DNA from: Auanema rhodensis
Lineage: Eukaryota > Animalia > Nematoda
Direction of reading: 5' to 3'
Length of the DNA: 64,000 nt
Assembly: GCA_964057225.1 (NCBI GenBank)
Contig: OZ059899.1
Coordinates: 10,850,001 to 10,914,000 of the forward strand
Shown: piece after piece, positions 51,441 through 59,048 of the stretch
Layout of the letters: each line of letters opens with the position of its first letter
Position numbering within the stretch: the first letter of the stretch is position 1
Program-made: the position numbers and the translations under genes
The notes under the pieces: model-generated
Databases searched by the model: none
What the model saw: only the letters and a program-made list of their open reading frames with translations
What the model was told of the DNA's origin: nothing

Positions 51441-52793
51441 TTGAGAGAAGAAGGTGATTCCTCTTCTTCTTCTCATTCTTCTTCTCTAACAATTAGAACG
51501 AGAAGTAAAAGCAGAAAGGCCATCACTGAGGAAACACCTCGGGCACCTACTACAGTACGAAATAGATCACCAAGTCGGTGGGCCGCTGCTATAACTAAAG
51601 CTTTTGAAAGAAAAATGACTCCTACCTCTCCATCTCCTAATTCTAATGTTGCTCCACCCTCTAGAAATATGGCAACTATTTTAAATTGCCATCTCTGTCC
51701 CAGGTATGACGGCTCTCGTAGCTTTCGTTCTTTTGTTGAATCTTTAAATAGATTTTTTAATGTTATGAATCTAAGTTTACCTGAGAGACTATTAATTTTA
51801 CCTCTTCTTTTGGAATCAAATGAAACAGCTCTCTCCTTGTATAATAGTATTCCTAGTGGCATAAGAACTAATGGCCCATGGATTGTTTTGATGGATCAGC
51901 TCACTGAGCTTTTAGCGCCTAAAACAGATAAAAATTTCACCATAGCGCTTATTCATCGAATACAACAAGGAGATAAATCTGTTCTCGATTTTAGTATGGA
52001 ATTAGAGAGAATGGCAAGCACCATAATGTCACCAATGGATCCCGAGCGGGAACCAATGTTGAAAACGGCATTTTTAAATGGTTTAAAAGAGGAACTGGGT
52101 ATTGCGGTTTTAACTAAAAACCCCGCCACTTATGAACAAGCTAAGAAATTAGCTAGGTTTGAAGAAGGCGTTCGTAATAGCTTCATGAAAAGAAATGAAG
52201 ACACCAGCACCTTGAAGGAGCTCATAAATGCTTTACAACATAAATTAAGCTTTAGTGAAGAAAGAGAAAGAAGTAGGAATAATAATAATAATAAAAATTA
52301 TAAAAATAATAAAAATAATAAAAAAAATAATAACTGGACTCAGCACAATAATGGCTCTAATGATTATGAGCGAGAGAGAGAGCGACCTTCTGCCGTACGT
52401 TATAATAATAATAACTCGCAGAACGGGAATATGAATAGGCGTCCTAACCCGGGAAACCGCCCATTTGCCAATGGCAGAAATGCCAATAGCTCGTCTTGGA
52501 ACCCTAGGCCTAGTTCCCCAAGAAGACAAAGACCATCAGCCAATGGGAATGGTAACTCAAGGGTATACAGCGTAGCGACCCCATTCATGCCACCGGTCAC
52601 GTTGTGCCTGACTTTATTGGCACTCTCATGCCTTCCCTTTGGGTCGGCAAAATATCAGATCTGCGCTCAATCTGAAGGGGGTATATTAGTAACACCTCCT
52701 GTGGTCACAGGCTGCCATAAGGCAGAAATTGAAAAGGCTCACAGTGTTGAGGTAGAAATATATCTACCAAAGGCTGAGATAGAGTCATGGTAA
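51441..52793 (+). CDS. gag: B5 Gag + Env signal peptide (premature TAA 52791-52793; first ATG at 51615)
   Basis: Retrotransposon capsid motifs, Asn/Arg-rich region, no CCHC; GAA or AAA in other copies is TAA here. Confidence 0.9.
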   Translation: MREEGDSSSSSHSSSLTIRTRSKSRKAITEETPRAPTTVRNRSPSRWAAAITKAFERKMTPTSPSPNSNVAPPSRNMATILNCHLCPRYDGSRSFRSFVESLNRFFNVMNLSLPERLLILPLLLESNETALSLYNSIPSGIRTNGPWIVLMDQLTELLAPKTDKNFTIALIHRIQQGDKSVLDFSMELERMASTIMSPMDPEREPMLKTAFLNGLKEELGIAVLTKNPATYEQAKKLARFEEGVRNSFMKRNEDTSTLKELINALQHKLSFSEERERSRNNNNNKNYKNNKNNKKNNNWTQHNNGSNDYERERERPSAVRYNNNNSQNGNMNRRPNPGNRPFANGRNANSSSWNPRPSSPRRQRPSANGNGNSRVYSVATPFMPPVTLCLTLLALSCLPFGSAKYQICAQSEGGILVTPPVVTGCHKAEIEKAHSVEVEIYLPKAEIESW

Positions 52794-52808
52794 GCATGGA
52801 AATGCTAT

Positions 52809-58800: not shown

Positions 58801-59048
58801 AACAACGGTACAATACACGAAATAGAACACAAAATAAAGAAATTCAGGTTAATGACTTAGTTATGATAAAAGTGAATTCTACTCGAAACAAACTAACACC
58901 TTCATTCGAAGGGCCTTATTTAGTTACAGCAGTTCAAAGATCTTTCATCGTGGTTCAAACAGATAAAGGAAAAAGCAGAAGAGTACACAAGGACTTCGTC
59001 AAACCTTACCAACGGACAACATCTATTCCGGTTATCACAATTTCTTGA
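52809..59048 (+). CDS. env-pol: B5 Env - TM - PR - RT - RNase H - IN (same frame as gag)
   Basis: Furin site 53424-53441, TM 55251-55316, DSG 55569-55577, YLDD 56862-56873, HHCC/DDE/GPY. Confidence 0.95.
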   Translation: MKKYKSCVRDFMFLRDRNTTFSHIETVDKKDCVRAHRNRMWNDKIMNAQQHSVFETPLNEHNPTRSWSTEECVEIEQFVLKRGIITRLKEDHIVSDLFINTDNCKGNEGFCATGEGAVIWQPPIPSVVCHYQKLGPFSAMLGDHILLVHSIESAFVLQNHSTSAHVQSCFEFAVFESSSEAIIRFTAYPRVYNLLDLSNTLLNADRRRNKRNALPQKHRSFSDDYLFVNAKSQPYAFPFLRPTFIFGSASITKFYAKYMRYAATSSYESLLQFAIDNPLFIDTIVSLGLTKDHITNWAKSNNFKDPNLLILQCMGIEEIKLATRQMINSMKLDDLITQVARRIEVPRLKRSLMKSTTSIEDFFRGMAHAVVYQATILDGTQTVPSIEQLARALYPSILPRSGNMNQSEIIATAQGMLFMIQQQSGKEQISRDMQVSRQQKADATVRNNQEQDLAIISKLPDYHNLYTKNSTAYYGFPPQSIEYPQENPKFNKTEILEFISWVKTQITTDKNMVQHTTVTPITATKTTIRSLTTPTPNAYERGRELYVAEVYDNVLHKSKHKTKTIIDNKLNYGFEKARLSIIDEFHQQFHTICKSQMETVKSWQAILRIHPTIGVRAMLQRDDIVARFVGRNVLKITTCQEIEPHFIYRNHSYNDKCYAETPVLTHDKQLFFAPIDSYDLSTEGHEINCEHKETEIWYENGTWRDYKGDTHKVDSIHSEKHDHYAELSKLRFTGRNLFENSTEKSLALSIGLTYGYSLSTSPHHDLLRVISRSRDWPQISSFIFKGSKLIRDARKIVFSNWDLFIDFCIGSIERTLITIGCITLILCLMIALYFTIKCYLSPTSMLKINHIMLSPTAPPLEGDEIHETVSDELMRSYFPTIITYIPLAIPFVCHTTTKKNGHMLPFVHIDIAGRGLLALWDSGATVSYIPFSTLAYIGRQYFTKYSKSASTANGSEFRFVGKCKLDVGIAGYQVEHEFLISEDNDCPGQMLLGTDFMRTLEEREIFTTLKLCKGKLIVGNMETPLVKPGCFAYKTTTKTVNIISLSTVTVPPHSTSHISLQTGPELDFDQYALLKSSTGPISIPDAAIGPFPITMVVSNNSSKPIKINKNDHIGSGLIASKEIMNDYVPPEADWEDKLPTFPQHLLDDLNFNSCTLSHKMKKNLITIIKENQTAFFNHDHNIGLFCGPVEHAIPIRSDMDFPKSRSYRVPLGKQEEVERQVKEMLSQGIIENSTATFTSPVVLVKKKDNSFRFVTDFRALNSVTKKQTYSIPHIPDIIDLAAGAQFFSNFDLISGFFQIPLKRSDRYLTAFTTPSGTYQYCRMPMGLCGAPHTFQSAVRYLQSLVRCKLFVYLDDLLIISNSAEEHLRDIQEVLKKVTELGLKIKLSKCCFAATEVKFLGFVIGRNGVKPDPAKIQAVSEFPNPSTVTAVRSFLGMTNYFRRFIQNYAGIAEPLYKLTHKDTPFEWKSEHADAFKTLKTLLCTAPVLKPPKADQPFVIESDGSMIAVGAVLLQSAEKNSPLHPIAFASRKLTPAERKYPPIEVEALGLVFALQQFRTYVLGVPTTVITDHRPLTSLMSRKDLIGRLAKYQLMIQDFNIKIEYRPGKLNSVCDALSRYIGNEANDSRPTKPKDKVKPVDAFIAHITTISSIDQLNCEEIRKVQAGVPWIREALSQINNDNCPANISDRYEEREGILHAKQTKNYLKPSIILPRNDKITDVVIKFFHEDSKIGAHLGINKTTDAIRRRFFWTNMVPQITEFINRCTKCASRKSNPHQSYIQPMGRFVIPEKPFDRIHVDILGPLPRTNDGHRYILSIQDAFSKWGTTCPLITQTATEITKAFVIRFVFIYGPPMSMITDNGSSFLSSEFQAMCKQFGIKHTTTLPYHKNANGQVERLHRTLEEALSSFVNEQQTNWDIHLPKVMFAINTLPNSSTSISPYVVLFGRDARLPIDHQLPGNNLQTEEPANPTEDFVNRSLIQNESTSNIVKDRIETCTKKNEQRYNTRNRTQNKEIQVNDLVMIKVNSTRNKLTPSFEGPYLVTAVQRSFIVVQTDKGKSRRVHKDFVKPYQRTTSIPVITIS

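Follow-up and report, generated by a model that had tools for sequence, protein, structure and literature searches.

The question raised by this locus is how an envelope (Env) glycoprotein is made when its gene lies between gag and pol in one reading frame. The locus belongs to a 64,000-nucleotide stretch of the nematode Auanema rhodensis (contig OZ059899.1, positions 10,850,001 to 10,914,000 of the forward strand; hereafter the window), and the element in question is a long terminal repeat (LTR) retroelement of 10.1 kb at 49909-60034, in which gag, env, protease, reverse transcriptase (RT) and RNase H, together with integrase, share a single frame. It is probably a Ty3/gypsy element that was active recently and belongs to the published gag-env-pol kind; its one-frame polyprotein would cross the membrane of the endoplasmic reticulum (ER) twice, leaving Gag and Pol on the cytosolic side and a predicted class III fusion protein in the lumen. 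The layout has already been published, and the finding therefore adds a member, not a kind; the main extra over that kind is a predicted helical domain, without a recognised fold, inserted in Env.

The gag-env-pol frame and its copies

The features of the focal element, in window coordinates, are as follows.

49909-50288 (+): 5' LTR, 380 bp, ends TG...CG, identical to the 3' LTR at 379/380 positions
50289-50301 (+): primer binding site of the tRNA-Gln type, directly behind the 5' LTR
51294-51614 (+): Ser-rich frame of 107 codons, 5' of the first ATG, open in 3/3 copies with translation read
51615-52583 (+): Gag, a capsid-like domain and then an Asn/Arg-rich low-complexity region, with no CCHC knuckle
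52560-52577 (+): putative target of the element's protease where Gag meets the signal segment, Tyr variant
52587-52652 (+): internal signal-peptide-like segment (hydropathy), kept in 27/27 proteins
52653-55253 (+): Env ectodomain, 867 aa, predicted class III fusogen fold (model of a 99.4% identical copy)
52791-52793 (+): premature stop, private to the focal copy (codon 500, early env)
53424-53441 (+): furin-type polybasic site
53535-54095 (+): Env insert predicted to form a helical domain, C-terminal to the furin site
after the helical domain, to about 54400 (+): poorly predicted, partly Thr-rich stretch
55254-55310 (+): transmembrane segment (hydropathy), 25/25 proteins
55311-55529 (+): cytosolic tail or linker, with a protease-site-like motif (55347-55364), PTAP (55371-55382) and a conserved Y/F-I/V/L-P motif
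55530-55802 (+): aspartic protease (Pfam)
56538-57596 (+): RT (YLDD) and RNase H
57954-59048 (+): integrase (H2C2 zinc finger, core, tail), up to the stop codon
59644-59654 (+): polypurine tract, ahead of the 3' LTR
59655-60034 (+): 3' LTR

The frame at 51294-59048 (+) comprises 2,584 codons with a lone premature stop at 52791-52793 (codon 500). An initial annotation of the window, made from the letters alone, had proposed one open reading frame (ORF) of ~2,535 codons; the single frame stands, while the count proved to start at a TTG (51441), the first ATG (51615) giving 2,477 codons. The proposed order of capsid, Asn/Arg-rich region, signal, ectodomain, transmembrane segment, protease, RT, RNase H and integrase was borne out by Pfam together with hydropathy. 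On the focal frame, Pfam places the protease at residues 1413-1503, RT at 1749-1908, RNase H at 1971-2101 and the integrase at 2221-2390. Below the cut-off are Retrotrans_gag at 179-266 (E 0.003) and Glycoprotein_B at 1073-1164 (E 4e-4), and in a further scan of the Gag region Retrotrans_gag (E 1e-4) and Ty3_capsid (E 2e-3). The order protease-RT-RNase H-integrase, the LTRs, the tRNA primer site, the polypurine tract and the short target-site duplication (4 bp around the focal element) are those of Ty3/gypsy (Metaviridae), the backbone already named in the initial annotation.

Three observations on the element can be added. The Ser-rich frame at 51294-51614 could be accessed via splicing or a non-ATG start. 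The LTR ends are TG...CG, not the usual TG...CA, in both env-bearing families of the window, A (692-19415) and B (49909-60034). The spacer between protease and RT (55899-56189, +) faintly resembles, over 28 residues, a herpesvirus dUTPase-like family (below the cut-off, E 0.008), and may be a degenerate dUTPase fold.

Family B comprises the focal element and four further copies on the minus strand, 97.5-99.4% identical over the coding blocks; one is full length and nested in family A, and three carry deletions.

6761-16897 (-): copy B1, second full-length copy, nested in the integrase of family A and carrying a premature stop (codon 1092)
21977-29674 (-): copy B2, which has a stop (codon 682) as well as a frameshift and deletions
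29721-34874 (-): copy B3, deletion derivative with RT to integrase
41031-48144 (-): copy B4, uninterrupted from Gag up to the spacer behind the protease, RT to integrase deleted; inside a tRNA-Ile gene

Copy B4 carries an unbroken frame of 1,696 aa (41773-46863, -) from ahead of Gag through Env and the protease, and the frame from Env to integrase is open in the focal copy and in the copy at 7756-12234 (-); translation thus confirmed the two open stretches (Gag to protease in B4, Env to integrase in B1 and the focal copy) from which the continuous frame had first been assembled. The premature env stops lie at codons 500, 682 and 1092, each in a different copy, and because the positions differ they are read as private decay, not as a programmed stop. 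In the three copies compared, the LTR pairs differ at 1, 1 and 4 positions, and the near-identity of these pairs means that the B insertions are young. Five B copies of about 99% identity, and a second family, within one 64-kb tRNA array show recent activity.

The stop inside env in 3/4 of the env-bearing B copies could also be taken as a sign that Env is a decayed passenger in an ordinary intracellular retrotransposon. This is hardly credible, as an env stop also blocks Pol, so that such copies are wholly dead, and, across 22 env sequences of about 20% identity, nine Cys/Gly/Trp columns reach an invariance of 90% or more. The codon differences among the B copies lead the same way: 60 distinct synonymous and 57 non-synonymous changes correspond to a ratio of non-synonymous to synonymous polymorphism (pN/pS) of 0.26, and the values for the parts of env, drawn from small numbers of non-synonymous/synonymous changes, are 0.15 for the N-terminal half (4/7), 0.17 for the insert (7/11) and 0.26 for the C-terminal half (3/3), as low as that of the integrase. 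On these small counts, the codon pattern is that of purifying selection on env. The env stretch is present in 13/14 of the listed public runs, from four studies; no RNA run is among those listed as carrying it.

Predicted Env fold, proposed membrane topology and processing

The ectodomain of 867 aa contains 16 Cys (1.8%) and 8 sequons, and about one third of it is a lineage-specific insert; the length of ~870 aa and the sequons given in the initial annotation were accurate, whereas "Cys-rich" holds only moderately. The polybasic furin-type site that it placed in the ectodomain was located at 53424-53441. The ectodomain was modeled with AlphaFold2 from the uninterrupted copy at 42904-45504 (-), with 22 aligned sequences, giving a mean predicted local confidence (pLDDT) of 68 and a predicted template-modeling score (pTM) of 0.41. 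Matches to the model come from nyami-, chu- and rhabdo-like viral glycoproteins (188 with E ≤0.001, best 8e-16) and from herpesvirus glycoprotein B (gB; 107, best E 5e-10), and the top rank in VIA-align is the prefusion gB of Epstein-Barr virus (Z 13.3, root-mean-square deviation 6.6, 355 residues aligned). Env is thus predicted to be a class III fusogen, gB/nyamivirus-like, and the fusogen fold on which the initial annotation had staked its reading is present in the model. By sequence, the ectodomain gave a single chance match among solved structures, and a word-based protein search with env found nothing, a weak negative given the 90 env relatives that HMMER retrieved from all representatives.

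The topology follows from two hydrophobic segments. Over the entire frame there are just two 19-residue Kyte-Doolittle peaks of at least 1.5, at 52584-52640 and 55254-55310, and these coincide with the signal and transmembrane segment of the initial annotation. A signal-like segment precedes Env in 27/27 proteins with an upstream gag (the window copy included), as against 0/1,350 control windows of the ectodomain; a transmembrane segment precedes the protease in 25/25 proteins, and its C-side flank carries the more positive net charge in 25/26. The signal, the transmembrane segment and the charge pattern together would place Gag in the cytosol, Env in the lumen and Pol in the cytosol, which is the arrangement proposed in the initial annotation; the conservation of the two segments across relatives is what speaks for it.

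In natural copies one frame runs over both the Gag/Env and the Env/protease junction, which speaks for a polyprotein. Alternatively, a separate message, spliced or trans-spliced and beginning at the signal segment's Met, could encode Env, with a Gag-Pol message that skips env, and the single frame would then be incidental. The focal segment does begin with a Met (52587), and Cer1 of Caenorhabditis elegans uses splicing for its accessory protein. We nevertheless find such a message quite improbable: several relatives, read by eye, have no Met beside the hydrophobic core, both junctions stay in open frame in elements just 44-50% identical in Pol, and motifs resembling protease sites lie on both sides of Env.

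The motif in question is [VI]N.[VI], inferred from its distribution to be a putative site of the element's own protease. Per 100 aa, the two cytosolic junctions contain it 1.42 and 1.32 times (in 15/27 and 17/25 proteins, respectively) and the ectodomain 0.08 and 0.13 times, a 10- to 19-fold enrichment. Proteases of Ty3/gypsy elements are expected to cut behind the protease and behind RNase H, and the motif reaches 0.35 (4/19 proteins) and 0.45 (6/19) there, compared with 0.00-0.10 in the enzyme cores. Between the two halves of Env, a furin-type RxK/RR site occurs in 32/54 proteins. In the cytosolic tail, P[TS]AP is found in 4/26 proteins, the focal element included (shuffled mean 0.1), a weak hint of budding assisted by the endosomal sorting complex required for transport (ESCRT) in a minority of the clade.

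The tails show a further pattern: a Y/F-I/V/L-P motif lies directly ahead of the protease in 16/26 (shuffled mean 2.5).

If the polyprotein is made as proposed, the ribosome would synthesise Gag first, the internal signal would then start the translocation of Env into the ER, and the transmembrane segment would stop it, so that the synthesis of Pol would return to the cytosol. Cleavage by signal peptidase would release the N-terminus of Env, with Gag remaining anchored via the signal segment and Pol through the Env transmembrane segment. Gag and Pol would thus be held on the cytosolic face of one membrane, an arrangement that might replace a matrix domain as well as a frameshift, and the yield of Gag, Env and Pol would be 1:1:1. 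Cuts by the element's protease would follow at V/I-N/Y-x-V/I-like sites ahead of the signal, behind the transmembrane segment and between the enzymes, and furin cleavage of Env would fall ahead of the inserted helical domain. Budding of particles would use that same membrane, possibly with ESCRT help via PTAP, and the particles, being enveloped, would carry the element between worm cells, for instance from soma to germline.

The same polyprotein and topology would also serve an element that releases no free enveloped particles, either budding into the ER or endosomal lumen or using Env to fuse neighbouring cells or internal membranes, with spread limited to tissue contacts. An Env to Gag ratio of 1:1 far exceeds the Env share of retroviral particles, which favours this version, as does the rarity of late-domain motifs in the clade (P[TS]AP in 4/26). 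The host-matching phylogeny of gag-env-pol elements, read as long vertical descent in the text of PMC13524379, counts on the same side. Against it, the furin-type site in 32/54 proteins implies passage through the Golgi, and a hypervariable, often Ser/Thr-rich surface slot in Env fits exposure to the outside; on balance we regard spread without free particles as unlikely.

Several points weigh against the twice-crossing polyprotein and the enveloped element built on it. Each of the five B copies in the window is broken or carries deletions. The signal and transmembrane calls are hydropathy scores, not the output of trained predictors. The [VI]N.[VI] motif was picked by eye from the same proteins in which it was counted, these proteins are related and their counts are not independent, the motif is missing from 12/27 and 8/25 of the junctions, and at the focal Gag/signal junction the site agrees with the looser Tyr form but not with the strict Asn motif. 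The furin-type site is absent from 22/54 proteins, and late-domain motifs are rare in the tails (P[TS]AP 4/26, PPxY 0, YPxL 1). The pN/pS values for the parts of env come from the few changes given above. Whole-chain TM-scores of the Env model are low (about 0.17-0.23, about 0.17 to gB, at a pTM of 0.41), which is expected because of the large insert and the loose domain arrangement. With these points taken into account, the twice-crossing polyprotein is still the probable reading.

Relatives and known systems

The best Pol matches, at 44-50% identity, are single proteins from Caenorhabditis auriculariae, C. nigoni, C. remanei, Diploscapter, C. brenneri and Auanema, and in most of them fusion-protein Pfam families share the chain with Pol. 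A HMMER search with ectodomain residues 452-758 against 1.84 billion representatives gave 90 matches. The full order gag-envN-envC-protease-RT-RNase H-integrase was found in one chain in 9/112 proteins, most of the others being fragments. The public single-chain relatives are the following.

C. auriculariae: P0093 (2,536 aa)
C. remanei: CRE_05815, P0095
C. nigoni: P0094
Auanema sp.: P0099, P0007
Diploscapter pachys: P0096

In all six (P0093-P0096, P0099 and P0007) Env lies ahead of protease-RT-RNase H-integrase in one chain, as in the focal element, and gag stands in front in P0093-P0095; only Auanema P0007 has the helical insert of the focal element.

The RT/RNase H tree (FastTree) was built from search hits and holds 65/127 rows, namely all env-bearing and named rows and every third other. 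Families A and B fall in a 12-row rhabditid clade (SH-like support 99), itself part of a 21-row clade (99) in which every named row is nematode and which includes two rows without detected env. Three env-before-pol proteins (P0016, P0036 and P0068) fall outside this nematode clade, in agreement with the statement in the text of PMC13524379 that the GAG-ENV-POL order is not monophyletic.

Two BEL/Pao elements, P0019 and P0067, carry an env related to that of the focal element, placed after pol. This points to one class III gene having been exchanged between the two superfamilies, or to parallel capture.

The gene order had been put forward in the initial annotation as possibly new. That part did not hold: besides the public Caenorhabditis single-chain proteins, passages of Chary and Hayashi (eLife 2026; PMC13524379) already describe a gB-type ENV and the GAG-ENV-POL order in Nematoda, Bryozoa and Platyhelminthes. 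The same text credits Sacco et al. 2022 (J Gen Virol 103:1739, PMID 35550022) with the first report of the flipped env/pol order in nematode endogenous retroviruses (ERVs). The "ancient errantiviruses" described there (such as Clat_errantivirus_4 and Ctro_errantivirus_1) resemble the focal element in gene order and in having a gB-type Env between signal peptide and transmembrane segment, and, in the passages concerned, the elements are young multi-copy insertions with LTRs similar in size to those of the focal element. In its Supplementary file 1, a tRNA-Gln primer site is entered for 8/36 Nematoda rows, and the focal primer-site 12-mer equals the Gln_UUG_CUG 12-mer of two Caenorhabditis elements. 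The word "polyprotein" has 0 occurrences in its main text, and processing and an insert behind the furin site are undiscussed in the sections examined, figures excluded.

The focal element shares with the nematode gag-env-pol errantivirus/NERV group an env between gag and pol, a gB-type Env with flanking signal and transmembrane segment (both predicted), an RT placed by the tree among nematode elements with this gene order (from species that PMC13524379 also tabulates) and a tRNA-Gln primer site. It also has a continuous gag-env-pro-pol ORF, though no copy in the window is unbroken. A literature search, with Sacco 2022 and figures outside its scope, returned no paper on the processing of a gag-env-pol polyprotein or on the insert, and no claim is made that these are unpublished. 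The nematode ERVs of Sacco 2022 (J Gen Virol) reportedly have a continuous gag-env-pro-pol ORF, a nyamivirus-like Env and sometimes a small extra ORF. The fold search on the focal Env is in keeping with a nyamivirus-like Env. The comparison across relatives yields concrete, testable candidate processing sites for such a polyprotein.

Other systems were compared as well. Atlas virus and the nematode belpaoviruses, with a single Gag-Pol-Env polyprotein, are an earlier case of an endogenous element with an active envelope (bioRxiv 10.1101/2021.11.23.469668, in the parts consulted); they differ from the focal element by their BEL/Pao backbone, their YVDN RT motif and their class II phlebovirus-like Env in last position (same source). 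Membership in Belpaoviridae (the Atlas and Cer13 group) was rejected: in place of the Pao peptidase A17/DUF1759, a YVDN-type RT and an env after pol, the focal element has YLDD and an env ahead of pol. Insect Errantivirus (gypsy, ZAM) was likewise rejected, the separate F-type env ORF after pol being absent. Cer1, suggested earlier for comparison, is similar as a nematode Ty3/gypsy element with a single long ORF; as a model for Env it does not serve, its 3' ORF, once proposed as Env, encoding the nuclear export protein CERV and no fusogen (PMC10309623, in the passages concerned).

The variable Env slot and the genomic setting

Between the N-terminal half of Env and its central helix there is a slot of 13 to 508 residues in 54 proteins, occupied by several unrelated groups of sequence, some with up to 48% Ser/Thr. 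In the focal element it spans 375 residues, of which the first ~190, behind the furin site, are predicted to be helical both in the full model and when modeled alone (pLDDT 75, pTM 0.69, from three sequences). Among the fetched proteins, this insert is common only to family A and the Auanema protein P0007, at about 24% identity. Comparison of the insert model with BFVD gave 0 matches with E up to 0.001, and that with 48,161 representatives of the Protein Data Bank no fold match (best Z 4.7), neither of which is proof of a new fold; scores against the ESM Atlas were at most 0.84. The inserts of 20 relatives contain no Pfam family when scanned, and a word-based search with the three-sequence insert alignment found nothing, a weak negative limited to proteins of 1,155-3,295 aa.

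The slot may be a cassette position for lineage-specific attachment or shielding modules, families A and B and the Auanema element then carrying a helical receptor-binding subunit of new fold, so that one chain would supply capsid, attachment protein, fusogen and enzymes. We hold this to be possible but doubtful, and the role of the helical insert as an attachment module is a guess. If the slot sets the choice of cell or host, its variability in Env would matter.

The window consists of tandemly repeated 666-bp units, each carrying one tRNA-Ile(AAT) gene (20 genes), and is interrupted by retroelements. Copy B4 is inserted inside a tRNA-Ile gene, at unit position 119, with a 4-bp duplication. 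Site-specific targeting of the array at the nucleotide level was considered and rejected because the four B insertions lie at different unit positions (119, 557, 579 and 621), and because contigs of the public runs X1, X4 and X6 contain LTR ends with flanks unlike the array (among the ends listed; there are 43 further loose ends). The B copies may have accumulated in a redundant array, or may reflect a regional preference.

692-19415 (+): family A, another element from the clade of family B, with env and protease in one frame, gag missing, and a small extra ORF at 18211-18846

In family A, the env-pol layout that the initial annotation had likened to that of family B is kept in so far as env and protease share one frame; the left LTR runs into env with no gag, the frame changes ahead of RT, and the nested B copy interrupts the element. 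The family A env matches Monjiviricetes_fusion (Pfam, E 7e-16). The extra ORF (18211-18846, +) has 211 codons and lies between pol and the 3' LTR; it has no Pfam match above the cut-off, and family B has no comparable ORF in that position.

Nested retroelements of three families fill more than half of the window (1-64000). A fragment of a non-LTR-type reverse transcriptase is present in one array unit (62065-63150, -), with a long duplication of unit sequence around it.

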